Below are positions 5,600 through 50,250 of a DNA stretch of 50,250 nucleotides, one piece after another; the first letter of the stretch is position 1; the number at the start of each line of letters is the position of its first letter. Source of the stretch: a virus. Both the position numbers and the translations under genes were made by a program. The stretch is taken from positions 1-50,250 of the IMG/VR virus record IMGVR_UViG_3300045988_081576. One strand, written 5' to 3'. Under the pieces are notes generated by a model. The model worked only from the letters and a program-made list of their open reading frames with translations. It ran no database searches and was not told where the DNA came from.

Positions 5600-5628
5600 T
5601 TGCACATTGCTGTTACATCATGTAACCT
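5600..5628 (+). promoter_or_regulatory. Conserved early promoter copy A: TTGCAC, 17 bp, TAACCT, with the spacer palindrome GTTACATcATGTAAC
   Basis: -35/-10-like hexamers at 17-bp spacing. Same architecture as the sites at 7068, 11368, 15165, 17033 and 50114, followed by the conserved leader before ATG 5686. Confidence 0.5.
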
Positions 5629-5685
5629 AAACACCGAACCAACAACGGGACTGCCATCCCATCCCAACCACCGAAAGGAAACCAC

Positions 5686-5829
5686 ATGCAACACACCAAA
5701 GACTGGGCACTAGGACTCATATTCGGAACCGCCCTATTCCTCGGAATCGTATTCTTCCCTGACTACAGCGCCGACATCCAACCAACCACCAGCCACGAAA
5801 CCGCGACGGTGCACCATGTATCCAGGTAG
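5686..5829 (+). CDS. Small membrane protein (47 aa, one predicted TM helix)
   Basis: ATG 5686 preceded by the conserved leader CCCAACCACCGAAAGGAAACCAC; hydrophobic stretch LGLIFGTALFLGIVFF. Confidence 0.35.
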   Translation: MQHTKDWALGLIFGTALFLGIVFFPDYSADIQPTTSHETATVHHVSR

Positions 5830-6088
5830 GGAAACACTCATCAACTTCACCAAGCACTACGCCGATGACGTGCAAGTAGTAAGCAGCATCCGGGGCACCA
5901 ACATGGCCGCCATCAACATAGGCGACTACCACCTCGAAGTGTCTAACAGCGAAACGAGCCCAACCATCTTTTGCGATGTGTACCACCACTACACAAACAT
6001 TGGAAGCTACGCCGAAAAAGACACACAGAAACTACATGCGCTAGTCGATGGCACCATCACAGAGCACAACCACAAGCAACCGGCATAA
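5816..6088 (+). CDS. Hypothetical protein
   Basis: ORF with overlapping start/stop coupling to neighbouring genes. Confidence 0.45.
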   Translation: MYPGRETLINFTKHYADDVQVVSSIRGTNMAAINIGDYHLEVSNSETSPTIFCDVYHHYTNIGSYAEKDTQKLHALVDGTITEHNHKQPA

Positions 6089-6102
6089 AAGGGGTGCGCA
6101 CC

Positions 6103-6309
6103 ATGCCGAACATTGAAATCACATTCGCTGACGATGACGCAAACATCAACCTAAGCGACCTCGACCAAGTAGACCAAGACCACCTACTAGACGCGCTCGC
6201 AGGAAGCGTGCACGCCATCCTCGACCTCGCATTCGTCCCCGAGCAAATCGACCGGGCACGCACAGCATTCTTCCAACGATTCACCATGACATTTAAGGAA
6301 ATTAATTAA
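6103..6309 (+). CDS. Hypothetical acidic protein (68 aa)
   Basis: ATG 6103 after AAAAGGGG; stop overlaps the ssb start (TAATGG). Confidence 0.45.
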   Translation: MPNIEITFADDDANINLSDLDQVDQDHLLDALAGSVHAILDLAFVPEQIDRARTAFFQRFTMTFKEIN

Positions 6310-6800
6310 TGGCTATTGACATCATCACCATCACCGGCGGACTACCCCGCGACGCCGAGTTAAGATTCACCCCACAGGGCGCGGCCGTCACAAACTTCAC
6401 CCTCGCCAACAGTGACAACCGCTACGACGAGCAGCAAAAGAAGTGGGTTAAAACCCGCGCCATGTACCTCGATGTCACCATCTGGGATGAATCAGCCGAC
6501 CGTAATCAGAACCCCGTGCAGTGGGCACGCCTAGCATCCGAACTCAAGAAAGGCGACCAGGTAGCCATCAAAGGCAAGCTAACTACCCGCACTTGGGAAA
6601 CCAACGACGGCGAAAAGCGCTCCAAGATGGAATTCATCGCCACCAACTTCTACCGCATGCCGAATACACAGGGCACCCCGAATGGCCAGCAGGCCCAGCA
6701 GAATGTCACGCAAGGCCTAGGGGCACAGCCCGCAGATGACCCGTGGAACAGTTCACCGCAAGGTGGATTCAGTGGCACGGACGCCAACCCACCATTCTAA
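6309..6800 (+). CDS. ssb: Single-stranded DNA-binding protein
   Basis: OB-fold SSB signature (ITGGLPRDAELRFTPQGAAVTNFTLA...WVKTRAMYLDVTIWDE...GDQVAIKGKLTTRTWETNDGEKRSKMEFIA), a Gly/Gln-rich linker and the acidic C-terminal tip DANPPF. Confidence 0.85.
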   Translation: MAIDIITITGGLPRDAELRFTPQGAAVTNFTLANSDNRYDEQQKKWVKTRAMYLDVTIWDESADRNQNPVQWARLASELKKGDQVAIKGKLTTRTWETNDGEKRSKMEFIATNFYRMPNTQGTPNGQQAQQNVTQGLGAQPADDPWNSSPQGGFSGTDANPPF

Positions 6801-6812
6801 GCAGGTGATAGT

Positions 6813-7055
6813 GTGCGAATCCCAGAAACCAAGCCACGCCGCCGCAACAAGTACGAATCATTCATGAACGAGCTTGTCGCCATCGCCGGTGCCGTGCCGC
6901 AGGATGAGGCATGGTTGCCATGGCCGGGGCAGAAGAGCCTTAAGCCGCGTACCCGCAATGAGTACTGCAACCGGCTAAACAACGATGAAATGTTCGGCCC
7001 AGGTTTTGAGGGGTCGGTGCGTAATGGCTGGTTGTATGCGCGTTATGTGGGGTAG
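6813..7055 (+). CDS. Hypothetical protein (GTG start)
   Basis: GTG 6813 after AGGTGATAG; ORF only. Confidence 0.4.
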   Translation: MRIPETKPRRRNKYESFMNELVAIAGAVPQDEAWLPWPGQKSLKPRTRNEYCNRLNNDEMFGPGFEGSVRNGWLYARYVG

Positions 7056-7057
7056 TG

Positions 7058-7096
7058 TTGCACCAACTTGCATCATGTAACAACACCATGTAACAT
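7058..7096 (+). promoter_or_regulatory. Conserved early promoter copy B: TTGCAC/TTGCAT, 17 bp, TAACAT, with two ATGTAACA copies
   Basis: TTGCAT (7068), 17 bp, TAACAT (7091), followed by the GGTGTG block and leader CCCCACACCAACCAAAGGAGACACC before ATG 7146. Confidence 0.5.
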
Positions 7097-7145
7097 TAGG
7101 TGTGTTCCAAGGGGCTGCCACCCCACACCAACCAAAGGAGACACC

Positions 7146-7415
7146 ATGAACGCATACACCTGCTACAACGGCCAACTCGCAGAAGCACGCATGGAACCAA
7201 CCACCAACACGGTGACCGCACTAGTCGAAGCAACACTATGGCATGAGGACGGCACCGACAGCGTGCACACACTCACCGTCACCGCAGAATCCCTAGACTT
7301 CTTCGACATCCTCGAAGCCGTGCAAACCGGCGCATACACAACAACCAGCGACTTCGCACAGCACTACCCCGGCGTTGAGCTAGGCGACCTAGAACTAGTA
7401 GACGGTCCACTCTAA
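7146..7415 (+). CDS. Hypothetical protein (90 aa)
   Basis: ATG 7146 after the conserved leader; the upstream part of track ORF 7068..7415 covers the promoter and is unlikely to be coding. Confidence 0.5.
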   Translation: MNAYTCYNGQLAEARMEPTTNTVTALVEATLWHEDGTDSVHTLTVTAESLDFFDILEAVQTGAYTTTSDFAQHYPGVELGDLELVDGPL

Positions 7416-7438
7416 ACCCCAACCAGCCCCACAGCAAT

Positions 7439-7645
7439 GTGGGGCACCAACCAACCATGAATACTTTCACCACCACCATCATCATCACCCTGGCGCAGTT
7501 GCTCGCCATGCTGGATCAGGGCGCCGCACTACCAGCACAAGAACCCTACTGCGGCCCACACCAACGCTGGCTATACGTGCAAGAGGTAGGCATCTACGCC
7601 TGCACCAGCCCCACCTACCGACAGGAGAAGAACCACAATGACTAA
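7439..7645 (+). CDS. Hypothetical protein
   Basis: ORF; the true start may be ATG 7458. Confidence 0.4.
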   Translation: MGHQPTMNTFTTTIIITLAQLLAMLDQGAALPAQEPYCGPHQRWLYVQEVGIYACTSPTYRQEKNHND

Positions 7646-8192
7646 CCCAACCCGCCAAGAAATCCTAGACGCGCAGCTCGCCCGCCAATGGGCAGAGTGG
7701 AACAAGTCCTGTGAAGTCAGCTCGCCCGAAATTCAAGCCGCAGCTAACTTCATCCTCGCCAACACCCCAGCGCCAACGATGGCCGAGGTTGAGTGGGACT
7801 TCGATAAGCACTACCTAGCCGGGGCCGTAGACCTCGATGGGAACGAGGTAACCATGGTGGGCGTGCGGGATGGCCTTATCCGAGTTTTCGACGTAGCTGA
7901 TATAAACCGGTATTACGCGCCGGTGCTGGAAAACCCGAATCACCTCACCCCGAACAGGAAGCGATACGAACTCCGCGAAATCACCGAACCGGAGCACCCG
8001 GAGGTGCTCACAACATTGGAGGATTACGAGAACGCGCCAGCAGGCACCATCGTGGCAATCGTCCGTCACTCCCCGTACATGAAGTGCGGGCGGAATCATT
8101 GGACGAACTTTCTTGGTACTGACATCTCCGACAAGGAACTGGAAGATGTTTCCCGCAAGGTTCTTCGATGGGATTGGGGAGAGCAACCATGA
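7638..8192 (+). CDS. Hypothetical protein (184 aa)
   Basis: ORF overlapping the upstream stop; no motif recognised. Confidence 0.55.
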   Translation: MTNPTRQEILDAQLARQWAEWNKSCEVSSPEIQAAANFILANTPAPTMAEVEWDFDKHYLAGAVDLDGNEVTMVGVRDGLIRVFDVADINRYYAPVLENPNHLTPNRKRYELREITEPEHPEVLTTLEDYENAPAGTIVAIVRHSPYMKCGRNHWTNFLGTDISDKELEDVSRKVLRWDWGEQP

Positions 8193-8317: not shown

Positions 8318-8328
8318 GCATACTAACG

Positions 8329-10031: not shown

Positions 10032-11313
<1,282 letters not shown>

Positions 11314-11357
11314 TTTGTGATTGTGTGGCCCTGTGCTTTTGCATGGGGTCTTTTTTG

Positions 11358-11396
11358 TTGCATTGATTTGCTACATGTAACACTATGATGTAACAT
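11358..11396 (+). promoter_or_regulatory. Conserved early promoter copy C: TTGCAT/TTGCTA, 17 bp, TAACAT
   Basis: TTGCTA 11368, 17 bp, TAACAT 11391, with ATGTAACA twice, then GGGGGTGTC and leader CACCCCAACCAGAAAGGAAACACC before ATG 11449. Confidence 0.5.
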
Positions 11397-11448
11397 TGGG
11401 GGTGTCAGAGAGTCCTGCCAGACTCACCCCAACCAGAAAGGAAACACC

Positions 11449-11748
11449 ATGAACCTCGACATCCTGTTTGAAATGACCGCCGCCCTCGGCATCGAATGCC
11501 AGGCACCCTACGACCCATTCGACGGAGACGCGGATAATCACGGTCAGTACTTCGATATTCACATCAAGCCCGGTTATTGGTATCGCGTCTACACCGGAGG
11601 CTACAAAGGAAACTTTGCCACCTCGACGGTTTGGCACCACGACGGAGAAACTGATCGCTACGACTTTGACGCCGGTATCGCCGCCGAAATCATCTCCGAA
11701 TGGGTAGAGGCAGCCAGCGAGCGCGAAGCAATCAATCTAGTCGCCTAA
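11449..11748 (+). CDS. Hypothetical protein
   Basis: ATG after the conserved leader. Confidence 0.5.
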   Translation: MNLDILFEMTAALGIECQAPYDPFDGDADNHGQYFDIHIKPGYWYRVYTGGYKGNFATSTVWHHDGETDRYDFDAGIAAEIISEWVEAASEREAINLVA

Positions 11749-11815
11749 CAAAGCGCAGGAGGGGGGCGCATTCCATATCACGCCCAACGCACCCCAACCA
11801 TTGAAAGGAAACACC

Positions 11816-11992
11816 ATGAAACGCTACGCGCCGGCCATCCTCAAACAAACCGAGGACTTCACCAATCACCAGCTCCAAATGATGCTGTGCACCATGATGC
11901 CCATCATCGAACACCACACCGACGAAACAACCGCACAGGCAATCCTCGACCACGCCATCCAGGTTGAGAACGAGCACAAGGCGGTGGCCTAA
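11816..11992 (+). CDS. Hypothetical protein (58 aa)
   Basis: ATG 11816 after the conserved leader CACCCCAACCATTGAAAGGAAACACC. Confidence 0.4.
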   Translation: MKRYAPAILKQTEDFTNHQLQMMLCTMMPIIEHHTDETTAQAILDHAIQVENEHKAVA

Positions 11993-12298
11993 ATGACAAC
12001 GCTCATCACACCGCACAATCGCAGGATGAATAACAGTTGGCGCTGGGAAGCCAAATGCTTAGGCGATGACCCCGCAAAATACGACCTCGACAATAGGACA
12101 TCTAATAAGGCAGCAATCGCCCGCGAATTGTGCGCCGGGTGCCCCGTGAAACGTGAATGCGCCGCCGATGCCTTGATGTTTGAAGCGTGGGGCACAGTAC
12201 GCGCCGGGGTATGGCTCCCAGGTAACGGGCTAATGAACTACCAGCAACAGAACTACATCAACGTACTGAAGCGCGTAGCAGCAGGGGAGGATGCGTAA
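11993..12298 (+). CDS. WhiB-family (Wbl) 4Fe-4S transcription factor
   Basis: WRWEAKC...C-x2-C-x5-C (CAGCPVKREC) then GVWLPG. Four Cys with WhiB-like spacing. Confidence 0.8.
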   Translation: MTTLITPHNRRMNNSWRWEAKCLGDDPAKYDLDNRTSNKAAIARELCAGCPVKRECAADALMFEAWGTVRAGVWLPGNGLMNYQQQNYINVLKRVAAGEDA

Positions 12299-13098
12299 TG
12301 GAACTGTTTAATGACCACTTCCAGAACTTCAAGCGCTACAACACCCCAAAAGCGCAGCTAATCATTGCCGACATACCTTATAATTTGGGCGCTAATGCTT
12401 ACGGCTCAAGCCCCGCTTGGTACATCGGTGGCGACAACAAGAACGGCGAATCCGAACTAGCGGGCAAGCAATTTTTCGACACAGACAAAGATTTCCGCGT
12501 CCCTGAATTCATGCACTTCGCCAGTAAGATGCTCCGCCCGGAACCGAAAGCCAAAGGCCAGGCACCGGCCATGATTGTGTTCTGCGCATTCGACCAACAA
12601 TGGGCGTTGATTGAAGAAGCAAAGCGTTACGGCTTCAACCACTACATCAATTTGGTGTTCCGCAAACCATCCTCACCGCAGGTGCTCAAGGCCAATATGA
12701 AAGTGGTTGGCAATGCGGAATACGCGCTTATCTTCTACCGAAACAAGCTACCTAAATTCCGCAATCATGGCCGCATGGTCATGAACATCATGGACTGGGC
12801 AAGGGACGGTAGCCACATCCCTAAGGTGCACCCCACACAAAAGCCCGTCGCACTCATGGAACGATTGATCGACCTGTTCACCGACCCCGATGATGTAGTC
12901 ATTGACCCATGCGCAGGCAGTGGTGCCACGCTAGTAGCCGCTGAAAATCTAGGCCGCAAGTCTTACGGCTTCGAAATCAAGAAAGACTTCTGCCAAGCAT
13001 TCGAGAATGAGATGCGGCACGCCGTCACACCAGCGTTGACATACGGCAACGACCCAGAACCCATCATTGCGCAGCCACTGTGGGGTGAGCCAGCATGA
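12298..13098 (+). CDS. DNA methyltransferase, beta-class amino-MTase (N6-adenine or N4-cytosine)
   Basis: Motif IV variant IIADIPY lies upstream of motif I VIDPCAGSGAT, preceded by HPTQKP, giving a beta-class order. No restriction endonuclease is adjacent. Confidence 0.75.
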   Translation: MELFNDHFQNFKRYNTPKAQLIIADIPYNLGANAYGSSPAWYIGGDNKNGESELAGKQFFDTDKDFRVPEFMHFASKMLRPEPKAKGQAPAMIVFCAFDQQWALIEEAKRYGFNHYINLVFRKPSSPQVLKANMKVVGNAEYALIFYRNKLPKFRNHGRMVMNIMDWARDGSHIPKVHPTQKPVALMERLIDLFTDPDDVVIDPCAGSGATLVAAENLGRKSYGFEIKKDFCQAFENEMRHAVTPALTYGNDPEPIIAQPLWGEPA

Positions 13099-15164: not shown

Positions 15165-15194
15165 TTGCACGATGCCACATGATTGATGTAACTT
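15165..15194 (+). promoter_or_regulatory. Conserved early promoter copy D: TTGCAC, 18 bp, TAACTT, 7 nt upstream of GTG 15202 (leaderless mRNA candidate)
   Basis: Hexamers read directly; the start codon lies at the predicted +1. Confidence 0.4.
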
Positions 15195-15201
15195 TACATA
15201 T

Positions 15202-15798
15202 GTGAATCGTCCCCCATGCGCAGGCCATGCCGTATTCACCAACCCCCAACCAGTAGACCCCGCCACCATTGACGCAATGGAAATGTGCACCTACTGCCCC
15301 CTGCTGAAACAATGCGCACTCAACGCACTCACCGCAGGGGACAGTCTAGACATGGTGCACAAACAACCAGCCACAGGTGTCATACAGGCCGGGGTGTGGT
15401 GCACAGGCGACCAAGACACCGCCAACCAACTCGCCACCATCGCCGGTGTTGACGCGCCACAAATCGGGCCACATGCGAGATTCACCCCACCTGACAACTG
15501 CCTAGGGTGCGGAAAACCAATGACTACACGCACAAAAGGAATACCACTAACAAAAGACGAACTAACGCACGCGGCGCACGGATACTGCCGAATCTGTGAC
15601 GCTAAACGCCGCCGCCAAAAAGATTGGCAATCAACCCAACCAAAAAACACCACTATTTTCACTTGGAGAGAAAAAAGACATGACCGCAACACTGGCCCTG
15701 GCCGTAAGCATCATCGCACTCATCCTAATAGTCGGCCTCACCATCATGGTGATCGACCAGGCCCGAATCGTAAAGGCGTGCAAGAAAGCCTATTTTAG
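15202..15798 (+). CDS. WhiB-like protein with an extended basic C-terminal tail (second Wbl paralogue); the C-terminal 40 codons overlap the dut ORF
   Basis: C-x22-C-x2-C-x5-C (PPCAGHA...MCTYCPLLKQC) and a GVWCTG motif; GTG start. Confidence 0.5.
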   Translation: MNRPPCAGHAVFTNPQPVDPATIDAMEMCTYCPLLKQCALNALTAGDSLDMVHKQPATGVIQAGVWCTGDQDTANQLATIAGVDAPQIGPHARFTPPDNCLGCGKPMTTRTKGIPLTKDELTHAAHGYCRICDAKRRRQKDWQSTQPKNTTIFTWREKRHDRNTGPGRKHHRTHPNSRPHHHGDRPGPNRKGVQESLF

Positions 15799-16884: not shown

Positions 16885-17053
16885 TTATCATGTGGTTCAG
16901 GTCTATGACCGTTGGGTAGTTGCAACACACTGGTCTATTGAGTCTTTGTCTGATAGGCGGATTATTGCGAACTTTGCTGACAAATCCATGGCCGAAGCCT
17001 GGCTAGAGTCATACACGGCATGGATAGACAAGTTGCACGGCGTAACAGTGTGA
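16874..17053 (+). CDS. Hypothetical protein (59 aa)
   Basis: ATG 16874 after AGGTGGTGGAAAA; in frame with track ORF 16772..17053. Confidence 0.4.
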   Translation: MNRDYHVVQVYDRWVVATHWSIESLSDRRIIANFADKSMAEAWLESYTAWIDKLHGVTV

Positions 17054-17061
17054 TGTAACAT
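17033..17061 (+). promoter_or_regulatory. Conserved early promoter copy E (TTGCAC, 17 bp, TAACAT) facing a 450-bp ORF-poor region
   Basis: Hexamers plus the downstream GGGGTTGTG block read directly. Confidence 0.45.
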
Positions 17062-17164
17062 GGGGTTGTGTTGGTGGCCACGAAGCCTAACACCGCAACC
17101 ACCAAACACCAGGCCTATCACCTGATACAAAGATAGTTCCCGCACTAAGAGGATAGGAAACACA

Positions 17165-17230: not shown

Positions 17231-17282
17231 TAGGGGTAAAAAGAGTGCACGTAGCTTAACCCGGCAAAGCACAACCTGATTA

Positions 17283-17307
17283 GGGTGCATGACAATTGGA
17301 TGCACCC
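17283..17307. terminator. Stem-loop GGGTGCAT-(9 nt)-ATGCACCC in the early/late intergenic region
   Basis: 8-bp perfect inverted repeat read directly; a T-run (GTCGTTTTTGTT) lies about 60 nt downstream. Confidence 0.35.
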
Positions 17308-17497
17308 CAACCCGGCAATGATGGTGGTTCAACCCCACCCGTGCACACTAAGGGGATGTAGTCGTTTTTGTTCATTTCGGCGACGCAAGGGCATAACCAG
17401 TGGTTTCCCTGACTTTCACCACACAACGGCACTGTGACCCTGCATTCTCCCAACAAACCTAAACCATAATTCAATAACAAAAAAGGGGTGGACACCA

Positions 17498-18941: not shown

Positions 18942-19379
18942 ATGCCACGCCTACACGCCGACAACACGAAAGCAGTCATCGCAGAACGCCGCCGCAAAGC
19001 ATACGAACTACGCATGCAAGGCGCATCCTACTACCAAATCGCCGACAAACTAGGCGTATCGCACGACACAATCCGCAAAGATATTAAAGCATTCATGGAT
19101 TACATTCCCCGCGAGAATGCTATCGAATTACGCGATATGGAACTGGACAAGCTCAACCAGATGGAACTGGCGTTACAGAAGAAGCTACGATCCGGTTCCC
19201 CACAAGCGGTTAATGCAGCAATCCGAATCATGCAGCACCGCGCCACCCTCATGGGCCTAGACCGCATCGAGAACAACGATGGCCTGGATGGTGCTAAGGC
19301 CGCAATGGATGCCATCGTCACGGCGTTGCTCAAGGGGCCAGTGGCGCAACCAGTGGAGGATGACAATCAGGATGATTGA
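18942..19379 (+). CDS. Terminase small subunit
   Basis: HTH segment RMQGASYYQIADKLGVSHDTIRKDI, coiled-coil centre and acidic tail; RBS AGGAGG; immediately upstream of terL. Confidence 0.65.
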   Translation: MPRLHADNTKAVIAERRRKAYELRMQGASYYQIADKLGVSHDTIRKDIKAFMDYIPRENAIELRDMELDKLNQMELALQKKLRSGSPQAVNAAIRIMQHRATLMGLDRIENNDGLDGAKAAMDAIVTALLKGPVAQPVEDDNQDD

Positions 19380-23332: not shown

Positions 23333-23986
23333 CTAGTCAATTGGTGTGCGGCCAATTTCTGCGCACAGTCTGAGATACGACCGGAATCTCTCAATCCTCA
23401 CCCTTACCGCCACATGAGATACCCCCTCGCTACGTCCTATCTCCGATAGTGATTCGCCCGCGTCTCTACGCTCCATCCATGCCCTCGCGCCTGGCTTCGC
23501 CGTCCGCTCATACAGCTGGATGCGGTAGCACCGGTCGCTACATGTAGCGCGCCCGCGCACCTCAGTAAGCAGATTTCCGCAGACTATACAGCGGCGGGTG
23601 ACAGGCTTTTTCGCGCCTTTGATGTTTTCCCGCGCCGTCGCTGCTTTCTGCTCAGCAACCACACCACGGGAGGTGAAAGACTCTTCTGTGCGGGCGTGTG
23701 ATGCGGCTGTGGGGTCGCGCTTTTCCACCATCCGATCCCACTCCGGTGTACCCACATGGCTTAGGGCTTGGAGTGACTTGGCGCGCCGCGTCTCAGGGGC
23801 TACTAGCCCCATGCCGCGTGGCAACCCATGCGCTTGCTTGTACTCTGCTGCGGTCATGCCGTGGGCTTTAATCAGGTGGGGGGCCAGTGCCCGGTACAGC
23901 CCCCCGCACTCGTGGCAGATAATGCGCTCATCGTCGCCGTCGAGGTAGCCGTACCGGCCATGCCCGTCTTTGTCGCCGGGTTTCAT
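23333..23986 (-). CDS. Multi-domain DNA-binding protein: MucR/Ros-like zinc finger, then CxxC zinc ribbon, then sigma-70 region-4-like HTH
   Basis: IICHECGGLYRALAPHLIKAHGMTAAEYKQAHGLP matches the Ros/MucR finger; followed by CIVCGNLL...CSDRC and RRDAGESLSEIGRSEGVSHVAVRVRIER. Confidence 0.55.
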   Translation of the reverse strand: MKPGDKDGHGRYGYLDGDDERIICHECGGLYRALAPHLIKAHGMTAAEYKQAHGLPRGMGLVAPETRRAKSLQALSHVGTPEWDRMVEKRDPTAASHARTEESFTSRGVVAEQKAATARENIKGAKKPVTRRCIVCGNLLTEVRGRATCSDRCYRIQLYERTAKPGARAWMERRDAGESLSEIGRSEGVSHVAVRVRIERFRSYLRLCAEIGRTPID

Positions 23987-24375
23987 GCGCGGATGATTTT
24001 GTCTACTGCCTGGCGGGAGATACCCGCAGCGGTGGCCACATCCTGTACGCGTGCCCCGGCGTGCACGGCGGCGCGGATAGTGGCGTCACGCTCGTCGCGT
24101 AGAGCATCGGCGGTGTCGGTGGCGTGCTGGTAGTCTGCGGTGGCTTCCTCTAGGGCGGCGAGCTGCTTTTGACCAAGGTCACCGGCGCGGCGTGCGGATT
24201 TAACGGCGCCGATAAGGAAGTCGGCATCGTCTTTGCTGATTTCGTCCTCGTCGATGCTGCGATCTTCTAGCTTCTCAATCTGGGCGATGTAGGTGCGTAG
24301 GGCATCTTCGGCGGCGTCGATACTCATGTCTAGTGCGTAGTGGAGAGTCTCGGAGAGATTATCGATGGTGGTCAT
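23983..24375 (-). CDS. Acidic protein with a C-terminal HTH (resolvase/Psq-like helix)
   Basis: GARVQDVATAAGISRQAVDKIIRA at the C-terminus; the stop overlaps the next gene's start (ATGA), indicating translational coupling. Confidence 0.5.
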   Translation of the reverse strand: MTTIDNLSETLHYALDMSIDAAEDALRTYIAQIEKLEDRSIDEDEISKDDADFLIGAVKSARRAGDLGQKQLAALEEATADYQHATDTADALRDERDATIRAAVHAGARVQDVATAAGISRQAVDKIIRA

Positions 24376-24430
24376 TGCGTTGGTTCCTTTCAGGTGGTGG
24401 GGTGGGGCCGGTTTCCCGACCCCTTGGCGG

Positions 24431-24631
24431 CTAGTCCATAGCGCTAATGCGATCCATCTTTTCGGCGCAGCGGTCGCAGGTGGGGACTTCTACGATTTGG
24501 AGCTTTCCGTCTATGATTTGAGCGCCAGGGCGAGTGGTGGTGGCTTCATTTTCGCAAAGTGCGAATTGCTGGCAGGTCATTGTTTTCCTTTCTACTGTGT
24601 GGTACTCGTTGACTGCGGTTTCTAGGCTCAT
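24431..24631 (-). CDS. Small zinc-ribbon protein (66 aa, four Cys)
   Basis: CQQFALC ... PTCDRC; start overlaps the upstream gene's stop. Confidence 0.45.
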   Translation of the reverse strand: MSLETAVNEYHTVERKTMTCQQFALCENEATTTRPGAQIIDGKLQIVEVPTCDRCAEKMDRISAMD

Positions 24632-24870
24632 TGGTACTCAATTTCAGTGGCCGTGGTGTTTTGGGTGTGCAGGCCGTGGAGGTTGAAGCCTTTGGTTCGC
24701 ATATGAAATTTAATTGCTTCTTCTTGGTGGGGGTCGCTGTAGTCGCCGTGCGCCATGGCTACGGATTCAGGGATCGGGGCGAGTGTGTAGGCGATGAAGC
24801 TGTCGCCGTTATCGTCTGTTGAGTGGAGTTCAATGTCGTTTTCGGTGAAGATTACGTTAAAGGTGTTCAT
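24628..24870 (-). CDS. Hypothetical protein (80 aa)
   Basis: ORF coupled with the downstream zinc-ribbon gene. Confidence 0.45.
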   Translation of the reverse strand: MNTFNVIFTENDIELHSTDDNGDSFIAYTLAPIPESVAMAHGDYSDPHQEEAIKFHMRTKGFNLHGLHTQNTTATEIEYQ

Positions 24871-24887
24871 GGTGCGGATTCTTTTCT

Positions 24888-25178
24888 TTAGCGCCCGATG
24901 ATGGTGACTGTCGCGGTGTATTCGGTTTGCTCTTGGGTGTCCTCGCCGGTTTCTGCGATGGTGCCCTGGATGACGATTTCTGCAAAGTCCTCTTCGATTT
25001 CCTGAGTTACAACCTCGAAGTCTTGCAGGCTTCCCTCGTAGTCAGGGGAGTTGAAGAAGTCGAGGATGTCGTTGGTTACCTCTTCGGTGGTGTCTCCGGT
25101 GGTGTCGATGTTTGCGGTGGTGTGGGTGATTCCGTTATGGGAGAGTTCCATCTCTGCGGTGTAGGTGAGGGTGGTCAT
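24888..25178 (-). CDS. Extremely acidic small protein (96 aa, about 22 Asp/Glu against 1 Arg); DNA-mimic candidate
   Basis: Residues counted directly from the translation; first gene of the reverse-strand five-gene operon. Confidence 0.5.
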   Translation of the reverse strand: MTTLTYTAEMELSHNGITHTTANIDTTGDTTEEVTNDILDFFNSPDYEGSLQDFEVVTQEIEEDFAEIVIQGTIAETGEDTQEQTEYTATVTIIGR

Positions 25179-25247
25179 GATGTGGTCCTTTCTTTGTGAG
25201 CTTTGTGCTCATTTTGCTTACACCCCCATTATATGCCACCCCGGTGG

Positions 25248-25275
25248 ACAATGCAACCCGGGTTGCAAACATTGT
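25248..25275. promoter_or_regulatory. Palindromic operator-like site ACAATG-CAACCCGGGTTG-CAAACATTGT upstream of the five-gene reverse operon
   Basis: Perfect 12-bp palindrome CAACCCGGGTTG flanked by ACAATG/CATTGT. Confidence 0.4.
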
Positions 25276-25288
25276 TTATGACATAGAC

Positions 25289-25322
25289 GAAGCCCTGCCG
25301 TTTCGGGGGGTGGCAGGGCTTC
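25289..25322. terminator. Hairpin GAAGCCCTGCC-(12 nt)-GGCAGGGCTTC downstream of the reverse-strand ant operon
   Basis: 11-bp perfect stem read directly; no U-tract. Confidence 0.45.
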
Positions 25323-25490
25323 GGCCCGGAGCTGCGCTCAACAGGCAACCATGATCCTAAAACAGGTTGGTGGGGTTCGCATGTTGAAAAATTGGGGCGA
25401 AAACACCCTACCTGGGACATGGGTCGATAACGTCACTGTGACAAAATATCCCCCGGCTGGCAGACCAGGGGACAGGTTGGGGAACGTGGA

Positions 25491-25736
25491 TTAATCTTCT
25501 CCGAAGAAATCCTCCATCGGAATAGCCCAGATAAATTCCATATCCTCCACTTTTCCTGCGATAAAGGATTGAAGTTCATCCATTATGGGGATGATGCCGG
25601 TTCCAAACCGGTTGACCAGGGTGGCGCGAAACCTACTGCCGCTAATTTCCTTGAGATATTCGACAGATTCGCAGTGACGGATTTCACGCTCCTGTTCCGG
25701 CGTAAGGGTGAGAACGTTCATTACGCCACCATCCAA
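25491..25736 (-). CDS. Hypothetical acidic protein (81 aa)
   Basis: ORF downstream of ant in the same orientation. Confidence 0.45.
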   Translation of the reverse strand: MDGGVMNVLTLTPEQEREIRHCESVEYLKEISGSRFRATLVNRFGTGIIPIMDELQSFIAGKVEDMEFIWAIPMEDFFGED

Positions 25737-25824
25737 TCTGCAATGTTGATGACCTGCGCCATCGGCTCGTCCGGTGGTTCCGGGGCGGTGAAGTAGTCGA
25801 ACATGTTGATTACATCTGCCATGA

Positions 25825-26619
25825 CTATGCCACCTCCGGAAGCATCGGGTCGATGCTATTCAGTCCAAGTTTGCGGCGAATGAAATCAATTCCCACCGGC
25901 TGCACATAGGTGGTGTACGAGCATCCCATCTCGCCGTTCTTCCTCTCGTACTCGTGCGCCTTGACCTCAAAATACTTCATGTACTGGGAATACGGCGTGT
26001 TCTTCATCGCACCCTTGGAAATGAGAACACCCGCGTTGCGCAGTTCACGGAACAACCAGTTCTGTCCACGACCGAACATCTTCGCCACGGTACCGATGTT
26101 GTACTTTCCGGTGGTATCGATGAAATCGTCGTATGCGTCGGCCTTGGGTTCAAGTTCCTTGTTCTTCGCTTCGAGCGCTAGGCGTTCTTCCTCGGCGTTG
26201 AGGGCGATTTGCAGGATCTCGGAGCGAGTCATTTGTGCCACGACACTTTTGGCGTTCTCGATGGATGTGGCGTGTGCTTCGCGTGCCAGGCGCTCACATT
26301 CGATGAAGTACTGGCGGGCTTGCTTGCCTTTGTCGGTGCGCTGGATCATGCTGATTTCTTTCGCCATGTCCAGGCTCACGATGTGGTCAATACGTGGGCG
26401 ACCTGCACCATTGGGTTTTACTGAAGTTTCAGTAAAATCCTGACCTGCGGAAAAGCCGTAGTCCACCATGCGCGGGAACCAGTCGTTGTAGCGCTCTTTG
26501 ACTTCGAGGAAGGCGTGGAGGTCGCGGCCCATGACGGCTTGCACTCCATCGTTCTCGGTCAATGGGATGACAACGTTGTTGTTTGCGCCCTCGTTGTAGG
26601 GCATGGGAGAATTACCCAT
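25825..26619 (-). CDS. ant: Phage antirepressor (AntA/AntB N-domain plus KilA-C/ANT C-domain)
   Basis: N-terminus VIPLTENDGVQAVMGRDLHAFLEV...WFPRMVDYGFSAGQDF and C-terminus KYNIGTVAKMFGRGQNWLFRELRNAGVL are both Ant signatures; strong RBS GGAGGA. Confidence 0.8.
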   Translation of the reverse strand: MGNSPMPYNEGANNNVVIPLTENDGVQAVMGRDLHAFLEVKERYNDWFPRMVDYGFSAGQDFTETSVKPNGAGRPRIDHIVSLDMAKEISMIQRTDKGKQARQYFIECERLAREAHATSIENAKSVVAQMTRSEILQIALNAEEERLALEAKNKELEPKADAYDDFIDTTGKYNIGTVAKMFGRGQNWLFRELRNAGVLISKGAMKNTPYSQYMKYFEVKAHEYERKNGEMGCSYTTYVQPVGIDFIRRKLGLNSIDPMLPEVA

Positions 26620-26762
26620 GATTCAATCCTCCTAGTGATTGAGTCCGTGCTCCGGGTGGTTGCAGCCACGCCGGGGCTTCTTATATGGCAACCGCAGAAA
26701 CATCAAAAGGGCTATTTCCTTGGTATGGAAATAACCCTAATGTAAGTTACGCAAAATGTCAA

Positions 26763-26963
26763 TTAGTGCGTTTGACCTTTAGCAATTCTGGAAACTTGAA
26801 CGTTACTTATTCCGAGTGCTTTGGAAAGTTCAACTGCGGTCACTGGGCCTGAGATTGCCCTCCGGAAAGCGATGCTCCTCTCTCGCTTCGCTTCTTCTAT
26901 AGTCTTCTCATATTTTTGTTGCGCTTCTATTGCTGCTTTCAAAAGTTCTTCATGTGTTTCCAT
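26763..26963 (-). CDS. Small HTH DNA-binding protein (66 aa); candidate regulator of the ant operon
   Basis: VTAVELSKALGISNVQVSRIAKG helix-turn-helix; sits in a low-GC segment directly upstream of ant. Confidence 0.55.
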   Translation of the reverse strand: METHEELLKAAIEAQQKYEKTIEEAKRERSIAFRRAISGPVTAVELSKALGISNVQVSRIAKGQTH

Positions 26964-26984
26964 GTCACCTCAATTCTGTAACTG

Positions 26985-27018
26985 AATGTTGTCACAAAAT
27001 GTTACACAATGCAACATT
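26985..27018. promoter_or_regulatory. Inverted repeat AATGTTG-(21 bp)-CAACATT, with an internal GTTACAC, between the lipoprotein and HTH genes
   Basis: Read directly in the AT-richer intergenic DNA. Confidence 0.3.
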
Positions 27019-27022
27019 GCGG

Positions 27023-27754
27023 TTACTGTGCTAACTCCCAAGTGCCGCAGTTCTTAGACTCAAACGCTTTATCACTAGGCAAAATCTCCACATAGCTCTG
27101 GCCCCGCGGATTATCATTCGCCAAAATATCATCAGTTGTACCGCTCAAACCAGACAAACGAGCCCAATAACACGCTTGAGTTCCACCATTCCGGTAAGTA
27201 CCAGGCTGGATGTCTGTACCAACTAAGAAAATCCCGTCTCTGAATGAGTCAACAGGGCCAGTTTCAACGCTCGATTCAGAGGAATCATCAGCCTGAGCCG
27301 ATTCACTCTCGACGCTCATACCTACCTTGTTTTTGGCTTCCGAATCGACCCAAGTCGAATTTGGGGCTGCATCGGAAATCTTTTGACACATATCCCGCGC
27401 CGAATCAAGATTTCCACCCTCTGCGACCGCGCAGTAAACAGCCCAATCTTCGTCCCAAACAACGTAGCCCTCGGAGCCTGTGTCCTTATCCAAAGAGGCA
27501 ACCTTTACGCCTTGGCTTTGCTCTGGCGTTACGCCATAAGTGAGCAGGACTTTACCGTTGTAGCATGAGCCACTACTAGCTTCATCATTTTCCACGTTTT
27601 CGTGACAGTCGCCAGTGATTGCGTCGAGTTCTTTCTGCATGTCTGCGAGTGTTGCCCAACTATCGGGATGAAGTTCCTTGGCAGTCGTATCACCACCACA
27701 CGCTGTGAGCATGAGTGGGGCAATCAGGATGAGAGATGTGAGAACCTTTTTCAT
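27023..27754 (-). CDS. Secreted lipoprotein (signal peptide plus lipobox LTAC); superinfection-exclusion candidate
   Basis: MKKVLTSLILIAPLMLTAC followed by a Cys-containing globular region; lower GC than surrounding DNA; first gene of the reverse-strand ant operon. Confidence 0.7.
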   Translation of the reverse strand: MKKVLTSLILIAPLMLTACGGDTTAKELHPDSWATLADMQKELDAITGDCHENVENDEASSGSCYNGKVLLTYGVTPEQSQGVKVASLDKDTGSEGYVVWDEDWAVYCAVAEGGNLDSARDMCQKISDAAPNSTWVDSEAKNKVGMSVESESAQADDSSESSVETGPVDSFRDGIFLVGTDIQPGTYRNGGTQACYWARLSGLSGTTDDILANDNPRGQSYVEILPSDKAFESKNCGTWELAQ

Positions 27755-46968: not shown

Positions 46969-46973
46969 GAAAA

Positions 46974-47273: not shown

Positions 47274-47326
47274 TTAACCCCTGGTCACCGCATGTGGTGG
47301 CCGCACCTAATTTTCAAGGAGAAACC

Positions 47327-47950: not shown

Positions 47951-47955
47951 CCTAG

Positions 47956-47971
47956 TTGGTTCTACTATTGG
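47956..47971. repeat. TTGGTTCTACTA(T)TGG; candidate integrase arm-type site (P arm), repeated at 48216
   Basis: 12/13-nt direct repeat flanking the attP core, read directly. Confidence 0.4.
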
Positions 47972-47999
47972 CCCTACTAGGCATTATTTAGGGAAATAG

Positions 48000-48046
48000 T
48001 TAAAGCGGCCCCATGTTCGCATTTCGTGAGCTAGGGCCGCTTTTAA
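48000..48046 (+). terminator. Rho-independent-like terminator: TTAAAGCGGCCC-(loop)-GGGCCGCTTTTAA
   Basis: 12-bp perfect inverted repeat followed by TTTT, downstream of the last late gene. Confidence 0.6.
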
Positions 48047-48051
48047 CCTGT

Positions 48052-48103
48052 TGGAGCCGACGACGGGAATCGAACCCGCGCTAGCAGCTTGGGAAGCTGC
48101 ACC
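48052..48103 (-). other. attP core: 3' portion (anticodon arm to CCA end) of a tRNA-Gly(CCC)-like sequence
   Basis: The reverse complement reads GCAGCTTCCCAAGCTGC (anticodon loop TTCCCAA), then a T-arm GCGGGTTCGATTCCCGT, then an acceptor strand ending CGTCGGCTCCA. No matching 5' half is present. Confidence 0.65.
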
Positions 48104-48215
48104 TTATAGGGGTAAAATGTAACAAAACGGCCTAAACAACAAGGTCGTAAGTTGCACACATTTGTTATGTAGTGTCACAATTAACCACGAATCAACACCA
48201 CTGTGGATCACTTTT

Positions 48216-48231
48216 TGGTTCTACTAGACCC
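48216..48231. repeat. TTGGTTCTACTAGACC; candidate integrase arm-type site (P' arm)
   Basis: Direct repeat of the 47956 motif on the other side of the core. Confidence 0.4.
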
Positions 48232-48251
48232 GCCCCCAAAGGAAAGCAGCC

Positions 48252-49445
48252 ATGCCCAAAGTCCGCTCCATCGGCAACCTAAACCGTGATACTAAAACAG
48301 GCCTCTACTACCGCGTCCTAGACCTTGGCCACCGCCCCAACGGCAACCGCTGGCGCGTTAGAGTCACCGCCAAAAACAAGCAGCGCCTTAATGCCAAAGT
48401 CAAGGCCAAAGTAGACGAGCTAGAAAACGACACGTACAGCCCAGGCGACATGCCCACCCTAAACATCTGGTGGGAATACTGGTGTGACCACATTGCTTTT
48501 CACCGCGTAAAGCCCAACGTACTGCGCAACTATCGCGGCTATGGACGCAATCACATCCGCCATATCGGCAAAAATAAGCTAGACCAACTAACGCCAGACC
48601 ACGTGCGCTACCTCCACAGGAAAATGCACGACGAGGGACTAAGCGACCGCATGGTGCAAGCCGTCCACAACACACTGTCCAAGTGCCTCAAGGATGCCGT
48701 CGTAGAGGGCAAAATCCCCACCAACCCCTGCGACCGCATGGACAGGCCCAAAGCGAATAGTAAAGAACGTGAATCATTCACCCGCGATGAGGTCACAGCA
48801 ATTATCACCACCGCACAGGGGGATGGGCACATGCTTTACGCACGGTGGCTCATGGCCCTACTTTTGGGCGCTAGGCAGTCGGAATGTTTAGGCCTTGAAT
48901 GGGAGCGCGTAGACCTCGATGCTGGGTTGCTGGATTTATCATGGCAGGTTCAGCGCATCCCGTGGATGCACGGCGAGAATTGCGGATGCCCGCCGCAGGT
49001 TAAGGGGGCACGGTGCCCGATAAAGCGGCCCGCTGCACCATCTGGTTATGAGCATCGTCCGTGCTACATGGGCAAGTGGTTTGTGCGCCCTAAGACTAAA
49101 TCGTCTCAGCGTCTTCTACCGATACCAGCACCATTACTAGCGGAGCTTATGGTGTTACATGAGCGTTCCACGGGTGAGGGGCTAGTCTTCCATGACGACC
49201 GGTTTAGGCCTATCGACAATTCGGATGATGACCTCGCATGGGCAAATCTGTGTGAACGGGCCGGTGTGCGCCCCCTGGTGTTGCATAGCGCCCGGCACAC
49301 GATGGTTTCCTTGTTGCTGGATGCCGGGGTGGATGCTGAAACGATTAGGCAGATTGCGGGCCATTCCACGGTGCTTTCGACGCGTGGCTATATGCATGTT
49401 TCTACGGATGCGGCGAGGGCTGCGTTAGACCGTTTGGGGGAGTGA
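48252..49445 (+). CDS. int: Tyrosine integrase (site-specific recombinase, phage integrase family)
   Basis: C-terminal catalytic region with R...HxxR...Y (LHSARHTMVS ... GHSTVLSTRGYMHV); adjacent to attP. Confidence 0.9.
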   Translation: MPKVRSIGNLNRDTKTGLYYRVLDLGHRPNGNRWRVRVTAKNKQRLNAKVKAKVDELENDTYSPGDMPTLNIWWEYWCDHIAFHRVKPNVLRNYRGYGRNHIRHIGKNKLDQLTPDHVRYLHRKMHDEGLSDRMVQAVHNTLSKCLKDAVVEGKIPTNPCDRMDRPKANSKERESFTRDEVTAIITTAQGDGHMLYARWLMALLLGARQSECLGLEWERVDLDAGLLDLSWQVQRIPWMHGENCGCPPQVKGARCPIKRPAAPSGYEHRPCYMGKWFVRPKTKSSQRLLPIPAPLLAELMVLHERSTGEGLVFHDDRFRPIDNSDDDLAWANLCERAGVRPLVLHSARHTMVSLLLDAGVDAETIRQIAGHSTVLSTRGYMHVSTDAARAALDRLGE

Positions 49446-49647
49446 TTGGGGGATAGTTAGCGTGGTGGTTGCGTGTAGTCCATTTGGGGTGAGGTGGGCT
49501 ACTGTGACGCGCCATGTTTGTTCGAACGTGTGGTTCGAATTGTTGCCGTAATCGACCCATGATTGGGTGGCGTTGCGGGCCTGCATGGGGGTTAGATGCG
49601 ATGCGGGGATCACGTCTTTTGTTTGGGGGATGATTAGCAGGTCATAG

Positions 49648-50112
49648 TTATTGTTCGTGCTGCTCCCTGCTGTGTTTTTGTGCATAGTTTCCTGCCTTTA
49701 GGTCACTGACAAGCTGCTGTATGAGTTTAGCTTGCGCTGCGGACAGACCGTTTAGGTCGATGGTTGAAAGACTACCACCATTCGAACGCGTGTACGAAAG
49801 TTCGGGCCACTTGTCATACGGCACCCCCAAACCAACCAAAAGTGTCTCCGCATCCAAATCCAATACCGCCGCAACCTTGATTACGGAATGCGGATCAAGC
49901 ACCAGGGGTGAGCCGTCATAACGGCACCCGCGCTCCAGCTCAACCACCCATTTACGATTACGCCCAACAACCTCAGCTAAATCATTCTGAGTCAGGCCTT
50001 GCGTCTTACGGGCGGCCTTTATCTTTTCGCCAATTGCTTCACTTCCCATAGTGGGAATGATACGTGTAACCGCTGATATTGCACTAATTCCACGCATGAA
50101 ATTACGCGCCAT
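49648..50112 (-). CDS. cI-like repressor (HTH_XRE N-domain plus C-terminal oligomerisation domain)
   Basis: IGEKIKAARKTQGLTQNDLAEVVGRNRKWVVELERG is an XRE HTH; divergent from the cro-like gene, with the promoter/operator region between them. Confidence 0.8.
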   Translation of the reverse strand: MARNFMRGISAISAVTRIIPTMGSEAIGEKIKAARKTQGLTQNDLAEVVGRNRKWVVELERGCRYDGSPLVLDPHSVIKVAAVLDLDAETLLVGLGVPYDKWPELSYTRSNGGSLSTIDLNGLSAAQAKLIQQLVSDLKAGNYAQKHSREQHEQ

Positions 50113-50113
50113 G

Positions 50114-50142
50114 TTGCGTCATAGTGTTACATGGTATAACAT
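50114..50142 (+). promoter_or_regulatory. PR-like promoter (conserved early promoter copy F: TTGCGT, 17 bp, TAACAT) driving the cro-like gene; overlaps the divergent cI start
   Basis: Same architecture and downstream GGGTGTG block as copies A-E; spacer carries TGTTACAT..ATAACAT. Confidence 0.55.
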
Positions 50143-50187
50143 GATGGGTGTGCGAACGACGCACGAACCCCAACCAAAGGAAGCACA

Positions 50188-50250
50188 ATGCCCGAAAAGC
50201 GCTACATGACAAAGAAAGAAATGGCGTACATGTACTCCGTTTCTCAAGGT
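50188..50250 (+). CDS. 5' end of the cro/excisionase-like gene, continuing at 1..217 across the contig junction
   Basis: ATG 50188 after the conserved leader CCCCAACCAAAGGAAGCACA; the frame is continuous with the ORF at 11..217. Confidence 0.55.
   Translation, partial: MPEKRYMTKKEMAYMYSVSQG

Follow-up and report, generated by a model that had tools for sequence, protein, structure and literature searches.

The virus record IMGVR_UViG_3300045988_081576 of IMG/VR (50,250 nucleotides (nt), analysed over its whole length and referred to here as the window) is the complete circular genome, 50,195 bp in size, of a temperate phage of Corynebacterium. The window was circularly assembled, since bases 1-55 are an exact duplicate (55 bp) of bases 50196-50250. 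An earlier note on this DNA described six dispersed copies of one promoter and 5' leader cassette, and all six were found where it had placed them, at 5600, 7058, 11358, 15165, 17033 and 50114. All copies are intergenic, lie upstream of plus-strand genes and share the arrangement TTGCRY, a spacer and TAACNT, the spacer being 17 nt long in five of them and 18 nt in one. The cassettes are paralogous to one another and are a real regulatory feature. We favour, with moderate confidence, the reading that they are sigma-A early promoters combined with immunity-specific cI operators and a conserved leader that bears a hairpin.

The copy at the cI/cro switch (Pcro, 50114-50187) has the -35 hexamer TTGCGT at 50114-50119, the -10 hexamer TAACAT at 50137-50142 and two half-sites, TGTTACAT at 50125-50132 and GTATAACA at 50134-50141. 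Its leader consists of GGGTGTG (50146-50152), a hairpin GTGCG-AACGA-CGCAC (50150-50164) without the CUGCCA loop of other leaders, CCCCAACCA (50168-50176) and the Shine-Dalgarno sequence (SD) AAGGAA (50177-50182), followed by the ATG at 50188. P5600 (5600-5685, ATG at 5686) precedes several small genes and the gene for single-stranded DNA-binding protein (SSB). It combines TTGCAC (5600-5605) and TAACCT (5623-5628) with inverted half-sites, TGTTACAT at 5611-5618 and ATGTAACC at 5620-5627, and an extra ATATAACA at 5565-5572; the palindrome GTTACATCATGTAAC reported earlier is located here, at 5612-5626. The leader of P5600 carries the hairpin GGGA-CTGCCA-TCCC (5647-5660), CCCAACCA (5663-5670) and an SD (5675-5680).

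P7058 (7058-7145, ATG at 7146) and P11358 (11358-11448, ATG at 11449) are paralogues with about 73% identity over 100 nt. The TTGC hexamers with which the earlier note began these two copies are present (TTGCAC at 7058-7063, TTGCAT at 11358-11363), but the properly spaced -35 is in both cases a second TTGC hexamer, TTGCAT at 7068-7073, 10 nt downstream of the first, and TTGCTA at 11368-11373. The -10 hexamer of both is TAACAT (7091-7096 and 11391-11396), and both have direct half-sites of the form ATGTAACA, at 7075-7082 and 7088-7095 in P7058 and at 11375-11382 and 11388-11395 in P11358. Downstream, P7058 has GGTGTG (7099-7104), the hairpin GGGG-CTGCCA-CCCC (7111-7124), CCAACCA (7128-7134) and an SD (7135-7140), and P11358 has the hairpin GAGTC-CTGCCA-GACTC (11410-11425), CCCCAACCA (11427-11435) and an SD (11438-11443). 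An intrinsic terminator on the plus strand (11327-11350, 10-bp stem and T run) ends the preceding unit just upstream of P11358; no other was found in the early region.

P15165 (15165-15276) lies upstream of an open reading frame (ORF) for a Cys-rich WhiB-like protein and of the dUTPase gene. It has TTGCAC (15165-15170), the 18-nt spacer, TAACTT (15189-15194) and ATGTAACT (15186-15193) with a TTACAT/ATGTGA palindrome directly downstream; CCCCAACCA is found at 15244-15252, with neither a CUGCCA hairpin nor a clear SD. P17033 (17033-17163) is the last promoter ahead of the packaging and structural genes. It comprises TTGCAC (17033-17038), TAACAT (17056-17061), a degenerate half-site GCGTAACAG (17040-17048), ATGTAACA (17053-17060) and GGGGTTGTG (17062-17070), and a 100-nt leader of different structure that ends at a 21-codon ORF starting at 17164. 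The GGGTGTG-like run that was said to follow the -10 was detected in four copies and is missing in two.

The scan against shuffled sequences that the earlier note had proposed confirmed the enrichment. ATGTAACA occurs nine times versus 1.54 expected (0/100 shuffles), with seven of the nine copies inside the six promoters, and TTGCAY-N16-19-TAACNT gave four matches versus 0.25 expected (0/100 shuffles). For CCCAACCA, 17 copies were found and 2.47 expected. The 11-mer TGATGTAACAT taken alone (up to one mismatch) did not hold up, as its four copies versus 0.8 expected were reached by 2/100 shuffles and are not significant. All these enrichment figures are inflated, because P7058 and P11358 are paralogous and the copies are not independent.

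The consensus of Corynebacterium sigma-A promoters has been derived from RNA-seq of C. diphtheriae and C. glutamicum: a -10 element TAgaaT (TAnnnT), a weak -35 element ttgcaa 16-20 bp upstream, and starts 6-9 nt past the -10, mostly at a purine (PMC5784534). Every cassette fits TAnnnT (TAACAT in four, TAACCT, TAACTT) and has a ttgcaa-like hexamer within that distance (TTGCAC in three, TTGCAT, TTGCTA, TTGCGT); a G is found 6-8 nt past the -10 in four of six. A strict two-hexamer scan recovered five of the six and no other match as good. Allowing C at the first -10 position gave nine sites in the whole genome, each of them between genes and in the right orientation. Besides the six cassettes, these comprise a second way of reading 11358 and two new candidates. 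The same core was detected at Pcro and at internal early units of eight relatives with different repressors, with TAACAT in the lower-GC phages and mostly TAGCAT, TACTAT or TACCAT in those of 64-67% GC. The six sites would thus be the promoters of successive early units, used by the host sigma-A RNA polymerase. That they serve early transcription units, as first proposed, is supported. An E. coli-style sigma-70 scan detected none of the six and gave fewer promoter-like matches than shuffles did, making it uninformative for Corynebacterium.

The two new sites remain candidates, because about four relaxed matches are expected by chance (our own estimate, on uniform composition). The first, on the minus strand (26964-27014), could be a seventh promoter bearing an operator: TTGCAT (27014-27009), 17 nt and CAACAT as the -10 (26991-26986), with TGTAACA in the spacer and an inverted GTTACA downstream (26982-26977). 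It precedes a gene for a 66-aa protein (26963-26763) and the antirepressor gene. The second is a weak promoter-like sequence, TTGCAC-18 nt-CACAAT (48152-48181, plus strand), upstream of the integrase gene (48252-49445). Nearby, at 48117-48124 (plus strand), a copy of ATGTAACA lies 17 nt from a 48-nt tRNA 3' part at 48053-48100 (minus-strand sense; anticodon loop CCC, which would be Gly, then T arm and acceptor end). Lying upstream of the integrase gene, this tRNA fragment probably represents the attP core.

The cI-like repressor of the XRE family is encoded on the minus strand (49648-50112), the longest ORF giving 154 aa from 50112. All seven homologues start a few residues before the helix-turn-helix (HTH), and for this reason the true start is probably M22 (ATG at 50049, 133 aa). 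The overlap of Pcro with the cI start, as described in the earlier note, exists for the longest ORF; with M22 as the start it disappears, the switch region becomes 50050-50187, and the overlap is probably an artefact of ORF calling. In that case the 21 extra codons would contain a promoter for the repressor itself, along with a half-site at 50065. A candidate promoter (50057-50070, minus strand) has the -10 TATCAT at 50062 to 50057, 7 nt before the M22 ATG, and the TGTAAC half-site at 50065-50070 abuts it. If TATCAT is used, the repressor mRNA would be leaderless; leaderless mRNAs are common in Corynebacterium (PMC5784534). The cro-like gene (plus strand, 50188-50250 and on across the junction to 217) encodes 74 aa with a weak match to HTH_17, below the Pfam cutoff. 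Assignment of the 50114 copy as its promoter is supported. cI and cro are divergent, and the half-sites at 50125-50141 cover the -10.

The repressors of the window and its relatives form one small family found only in Corynebacterium, with divergent helix 3 sequences (NRKWVVE, DRTWVTQ, GRKWVIQ, SRHWVTQ and others). In the AlphaFold (AF2) model (predicted local distance difference test score, pLDDT, 78), a five-helix XRE HTH (residues 3-73) is followed by a low-confidence linker of about 30 residues and a long C-terminal helix (104-131). The top structural matches of the model are C.BclI, SinR, C.AhdI, HipB, 434 and P22 c2. Neither the matches of its sequence to solved structures nor the best 50 fold matches listed include an L5-type repressor. 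No S24 self-cleavage domain was detected in the repressor; Pfam gave HTH families only and the model ends in the single C-terminal helix. The lack of S24 together with the presence of an antirepressor gene suggests induction via the antirepressor.

The element ATGTAAC/GTTACAT is built on a 9-bp near-palindrome, ATGT-A-ACAT, one copy of which always lies over the -10. The second copy is inverted and 10 bp upstream in Pcro and P5600 (TGTTACAT-N-ATGTAAC), and direct and 13 bp upstream in P7058 and P11358, with a degenerate version in P17033; P15165 combines one good copy with degenerate ones. TGTAAC shows no overall enrichment in the genome (17 versus 18.6 expected from shuffles), and its placement is what distinguishes it: nine of the 17 copies are in the six promoters, two at 26977-27006 (minus strand, intergenic), one at 48118 and one at 50065, leaving four in clearly coding DNA. 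The intergenic gaps beyond the promoters and these candidate regulatory spots contain none. Minus-strand copies were also considered as divergent -10 elements and rejected, the final T of the hexamer being missing in every case.

Relatives with different repressors fall into immunity groups defined by divergent repressors: A (the window), B (L028), D (L038), F (L037 and L042), G (L039) and H (L041). Four metagenome variants (L002-L005) are near-identical to the window and uninformative on the switch. Relatives by large terminase from IMG/VR, with 70% GC and an unrelated early region, served as negative controls and lack the motifs. The spacer was taken as the informative part, because GTAACAT at the -10 is common to heteroimmune phages. 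At positions 6-12 of the Pcro spacer, five nt past the -35, the 7-mer is TGTTACA in A, TGTTGTG in B, TGTTCCG in D, TGTTGCC in F, TGCACGC in G and TGCTGTG in H. Each 7-mer recurs preferentially in the internal promoters of its own phage: with the -10 masked and up to one mismatch allowed, the diagonal sum was 12.6, while permutations averaged 5.1 and reached the observed value in just 0.18% of 5040 cases. A simpler k-mer comparison gave the same picture (p ~0.003). Where the counterpart of P7058 aligns, TGTAACA in the window stands against CACAACA in L028, each the inverse of the phage's own Pcro element. Among homoimmune relatives the cassettes are nearly invariant, and the flanking genes are 84-87% identical. 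This covariation indirectly supports binding of the resident repressor to operators at every early promoter, a conclusion drawn from sequence comparison. It had been suggested that cI recognises the half-sites and could silence every early unit. The element indeed behaves as an immunity-specific operator; the copy at the -10 is mostly promoter.

Several observations weigh against this interpretation. Heteroimmune phages of groups B, D, E and H also have GTAACAT at the -10, and those of D, E and H (L038, L040 and L041) have ATGTAACAT there as well, so that the copy overlapping the -10 is mainly promoter sequence. Two heteroimmune phages, L038 (in P5795) and L031 (in Pcro), carry TGTTACAT at this spacer position; the motif may in part have been inherited with the promoter, or repressors may overlap in specificity. 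The same motif is found in groups B and H, whose helix 3 residues differ. The comparison covers two to six promoters for each phage, all in cassettes of common descent. In coding sequence, avoidance of TGTAAC measured against a synonymous-codon shuffle with crude gene calls is not significant (7 versus 12.1, p ~0.07). A simple HTH dimer would not usually be expected to use direct as well as inverted pairs. Finally, we infer both repressor binding at the half-sites and the transcription starts.

A rival reading takes the cassettes as promoters only, the repeats being extended or duplicated -10 elements with inherited flanks and the repressor acting at cI/cro alone. The internal promoters would then be silent in lysogens for other reasons, or be read through from Pcro. 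The persistence of GTAACAT, often as ATGTAACAT, and of TGTTACAT in heteroimmune relatives, the clear paralogy of P7058 and P11358 and the non-significant depletion in coding DNA all agree with this explanation, which fails to account for a spacer 7-mer that switches by immunity group and is repeated inside each phage even where the promoters are not homologous, or for CACAACA in group B where A has TGTAACA. Sigma-A has no use for a further -10-like copy placed 10 or 13 bp upstream, and unrepressed promoters before recombination, replication, methylase and packaging genes fit stable lysogeny poorly. We therefore regard promoters without internal operators as unlikely.

Somewhat less probable again is an operator for another regulator, such as the Cro-like HTH_17 protein, the 270-aa HTH protein encoded at 2197-3009 or a WhiB-like protein, which would time lytic expression. 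The phage encodes several early DNA-binding proteins, in lambda-type switches Cro shares the operators of cI, and two repeated motifs in the L038 promoters (ATGTTCC and TGTTACA) hint at two ligands. The location of the motif over the Pcro -10, in the cI/cro intergenic region, is nevertheless the classic position for a repressor, and the motif variants track the immunity groups of divergent repressors, with the reservation that Cro-like proteins diverge too. Stoperators of the L5 type, blocking elongating polymerase, were part of the original proposal and are largely refuted: the sites are spread over 17 kb and most copies point along transcription, but they are quasi-palindromes (ATGTnACAT) rather than 13-bp asymmetric sites, sit inside promoters and are absent from the many promoter-less gaps, occur in both orientations, number about a dozen (roughly 9-13) instead of more than 20, and face a single-HTH XRE repressor without a second DNA-binding domain, which makes this explanation very improbable. 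Equally little credence can be given to a phage-encoded sigma factor or special extended -10 class, the other option of the earlier note, for which the unusually uniform hexamers and a protein (18942-19379) with a weak Sigma70_r4_2 match below the Pfam cutoff might be cited: the hexamers equal the host sigma-A consensus, Pcro must fire ahead of any phage protein, the gene in question lies just upstream of the large terminase gene, in the usual place of the small terminase, and is transcribed after these promoters, and a phage sigma factor is unnecessary because the core fits host sigma-A and recurs in relatives with different repressors.

In the favoured reading, of early sigma-A promoters with cI operators, the host sigma-A polymerase would start each early unit at one cassette. 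The ligand of the (A)TGTAACA(T) pairs would most likely be the phage's own XRE cI-like repressor, which when bound would occlude the -10 and keep every early unit off, probably including the antirepressor operon at 27014. Control would be exerted at initiation, by operators at multiple promoters as for P1 C1 or those L5 sites that are operators, with no block of elongation. A single HTH with a linker and a C-terminal helix could form an oligomer that reaches half-sites in either orientation at 10- or 13-bp spacing. Past the start, the leader would present the CUGCCA hairpin, then an unstructured C/A-rich CCCAACCA, then the SD. The hairpin-leader would act as a separable post-transcriptional element, present also inside operons without a promoter.

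The hairpin was overlooked in the earlier note. It has an invariant CUGCCA loop on variable stems of 4-6 bp. Five are encoded on the plus strand of the window, at 240-255, 2164-2179, 5647-5660, 7111-7124 and 11410-11425, with the stems GGGAA, GCCGC, GGGA, GGGG and GAGTC; shuffles give 0.6 per genome. Since two of these copies have no promoter upstream, the hairpin is separable from the promoter. The first promoterless hairpin-leader (240-300) lies between cro and the YqaJ exonuclease gene and consists of GGGAA-CTGCCA-TTCCC (240-255), CCCCAACCA (281-289) and an SD (290-295) before the ATG at 301. The second (2164-2196) consists of GCCGC-CTGCCA-GCGGC (2164-2179) and CCCCAACCA (2185-2193) before the ATG at 2197. 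At 11792-11815 the leader occurs alone, with CCCCAACCA (11792-11800), an SD (11805-11810) and the ATG at 11816. Of the additional leader sites listed previously, those at 283 and in the 11790 region could be confirmed; 48228 has CCCCCAAAGGAAA only and no CCAACCA motif. The association of the leader with start codons holds as well: ten of 24 CCAACCA copies are within 30 nt of a start, versus about 6.5% of early-region positions, and 21 of the 24 are in the early region on the plus strand.

Of the CTGCCA copies in family loci, 27/78 on the sense strand and 3/50 on the antisense strand are flanked by a stem of at least 4 bp, as are 0/101 copies in loci of unrelated phages and 0/13 in host flanks; in the early region of L041 the sense count was 5/5. 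There are 12 distinct stems, with compensatory changes at all five pairs. A constant loop on changing stems is what an RNA hairpin recognised by its loop would show, and G-U pairs, which point to RNA, occur on the sense strand only. The 3' edge of the hairpin is 17-29 nt from the start codon, mostly 21-25 nt, and 45-55 nt in the post-cro copies. Minimum free energy folds retain the hairpin and leave CCCAACCA-SD-AUG unpaired. The loop is CUGCAA instead of CUGCCA in all three hairpins of L039 (9930-20200), and L038 (700-7000) has CTCCAAGCA in place of CCCAACCA; this phage-by-phage variation hints at co-evolution with a phage-specific partner.

Some results count against the hairpin. The stem alignment was chosen by requiring a stem, which leaves the stem counts per sequence set as the fair test. 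Leader folding energies are no better than those of shuffles, so that the hairpin rests on covariation and distribution. P15165 and P17033 lack it, and that of Pcro is different. No Rfam family matched the leader or the whole window at the gathering score, and none matched 5560-7160 with E up to 5. We know of no pairing partner in 16S rRNA for the loop or for CCCAACCA, no real host rRNA sequence having been compared. The post-cro hairpin sits inside a larger predicted fold (218-305, plus strand) with an outer stem CCGGCC...GGCCGG (-25.6 kcal/mol, z -1.4), and its flank AUAAAUG..CCGGGGC is kept in several relatives; the larger structure could be a weak terminator or attenuator.

Because its distance to the start codon is fixed, the hairpin most likely sets translation initiation or mRNA stability via a factor that reads the loop, as judged from its placement. 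The main alternative is a nut/boxB-like loading site, considered because one copy lies just after cro. We tentatively raise the further possibility that the hairpin and C/A-rich leader constitute an undescribed cis-regulatory RNA, whose loop would be read by a trans factor, encoded by phage or host, that coordinates translation, antitermination or stability across the early messages, with the cassettes serving also as recombination joints. As regards the latter, blocks of homology between the window and L024 (BLAST) end at 2196, 11453 and 11793, all leader positions. L024 lacks the gene at 11449-11748, and its P11358 cassette is fused via the shared leader to the next gene (leader at 11792). 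Around 7080-7170 the cassette alone is conserved between L028 and the window. These patterns suggest that the cassettes are recombination junctions between relatives.

The remainder of the genome follows the gene order typical of a temperate siphovirus. The early genes, about 17 kb in rightward orientation, encode a YqaJ exonuclease, RecT, SSB, the small subunit of ribonucleotide reductase (RNR), a WhiB-family and a WhiB-like protein, two DNA methylases and a dUTPase, and the late genes encode terminase, portal and structural proteins. Among the products of cassette-driven early units are a Pfam WhiB-family protein (11993-12298), the second Cys-rich WhiB-like ORF (15277-15798; no Pfam match) and two DNA methylases, N6/N4 (12298-13098) and C5 (13764-14684). 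A leftward gene island (23333-27754, minus strand) interrupts the rightward structural region and includes a Ros/MucR-like regulator (23333-23986) and the antirepressor gene with AntA and KilAC domains (25825-26619). A strong terminator in this island (about 25446-25473, 11-bp stem and T run) has the loop CTGCCA by chance.

Downstream of P17033 and its 21-codon ORF, a tRNA-like gene (17245-17347, plus strand) scored 38.3 bits against the Rfam tRNA family (gathering score 29). It has 47 nt in place of the 17-nt anticodon arm, an insert of about 30 nt, and ARAGORN makes no call. In high-GC relatives, a structured non-coding stretch of about 560-620 bp precedes the SSB gene (L037:10546-11162, L042:3443-4005) and holds sequence resembling a tRNA T arm (GGTTCGAGTCC, GGGTTCGATTCCC).

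The scaffold derives from a human-microbiome metagenome (European Nucleotide Archive ERZ28588163), and the public record begins at a different point. Among sequenced isolate genomes, the closest relative found was a Corynebacterium striatum ATCC 6940 prophage; more relatives were found in other Corynebacterium genomes and in metagenomes. An exact search of IMG/VR for ATGTAACA-N5-ATGTAACAT returned one true relative and several chance matches. Among GenBank phages (megablast, tblastn) there was no close isolated phage, the YqaJ relatives having about 31% identity, and neither the repressor nor the cassette had a match. The sole nucleotide match to a GenBank phage is a 153-bp part of the RNR small-subunit gene (10815-10967; 80.5%, Glutamicibacter phage Montesquieu).

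This phage family has no isolated or studied member, and its hosts include C. striatum and other Corynebacterium species. Repression at multiple sites is an already known strategy; the CUGCCA hairpin, which matches no described RNA family, is the novel element, a candidate new leader RNA of phages that can be tested. The comparison of immunity groups is a natural experiment on how immunity specificities evolve: a single repressor family would recognise sites that apparently combine a common TGTT core with a variable triplet, and each early promoter reuses the site type. For Corynebacterium engineering, such sites could yield orthogonal repressor/operator pairs, together with strong, well-defined promoters. 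A loop-reading factor, if it exists, would add a post-transcriptional layer over multi-promoter repression, and the same cassettes would shuffle early genes by recombination. The leader would be a second example of start-associated repeats in actinobacteriophages, after the unexplained start-associated sequences (SAS) and their extended form (ESAS) of Cluster K mycobacteriophages.

Of the known regulators, SinR of Bacillus subtilis is a top fold match and likewise has an XRE HTH and a C-terminal helical oligomerisation region. SinR binds 7-bp sites arranged as inverted or tandem direct repeats; it is a regulator of host biofilms with an unrelated site sequence and not a phage immunity repressor. 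Lambda, 434 and P22 resemble the window phage in their divergent repressor and cro-like genes, XRE-fold repressor and operators over the lytic -10. The window differs from them in having one composite site and the half-site at 50065 instead of an OR1-3 array, a repressor without S24, a Cro-like protein whose sub-threshold HTH_17 match (an excisionase/MerR-like fold) is outside the lambda Cro family, and the same operator type reused at five or more other promoters.

Many sites outside the immunity region are known from the actinobacteriophage L5 (a Cluster A mycobacteriophage), whose repressor is a monomer with two DNA-binding domains and whose stoperators are 13-bp and asymmetric, number more than 20 per genome, lie in promoter-less gaps, are oriented with transcription and affect elongation according to that orientation, although some L5 sites are true promoter operators (PMC9283540). 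None of these stoperator features, from size and asymmetry, number, location and orientation to the two-domain monomer, is found here. The C1 repressor of P1 has 22 operators with a 17-bp consensus dispersed over its genome (PMC8546580). There, one immunity repressor governs many promoters through short promoter operators, an arrangement that the distribution and immunity-group covariation would fit here, and both phages encode an antirepressor. The P1 operators are 17-bp and asymmetric, whereas those of the window are 7-9 bp quasi-palindromes, paired in most promoters; the window repressor has an XRE HTH, and P1 C1 was not among its sequence or fold matches to solved structures, a direct comparison not having been run. 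By analogy, P1 C1 appears to be a closer functional parallel than L5 stoperators.

For the leader, the nut sites of lambda offer one comparison. They are small hairpins with a conserved loop in early transcripts, with an adjoining linear motif, and nutR lies just downstream of cro. The window has a hairpin with a conserved loop, its first copy just downstream of cro, and a single-stranded motif beside it; it differs in the reversed order (hairpin, then linear motif), the fixed spacing to starts, the copies before many genes and an early region in which a single intrinsic terminator was found. No family match to an N-like arginine-rich protein was detected among the early proteins scanned, small ORFs not having been checked individually. 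The promoter-stem-loop (PeSL) elements of T4-like phages are cassettes of an early promoter and a stem-loop between early genes and act as recombination points (PMC2839356, PMC4122927). Here, too, the cassettes mark junctions of insertion, deletion or replacement, as with the gene at 11449-11748, present or absent. In PeSL the stem-loop is a terminator beside the promoter (PMC4122927), in contrast to the 4-6 bp stems found here, which lie downstream of the start, lack a U tract and carry a conserved loop; a true terminator upstream is present only at P11358 among the cassettes.

The SAS of Cluster K are conserved sequences in one orientation just upstream of many starts, with a suspected translational role and no known function (PMC3203893). 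Like the leader described here, they include or abut the SD and are specific to a phage group, some with an adjacent inverted repeat, a likeness by analogy only, as the SAS sequence GGGATAGGAGCCC is unrelated to CCCAACCA..AAGGA. ESAS have conserved 17-bp arms and a variable spacer; in the window family the stems vary (12 forms) and the 6-nt loop is invariant. With these differences, SAS/ESAS appear to be the nearest described analogue of the leader.

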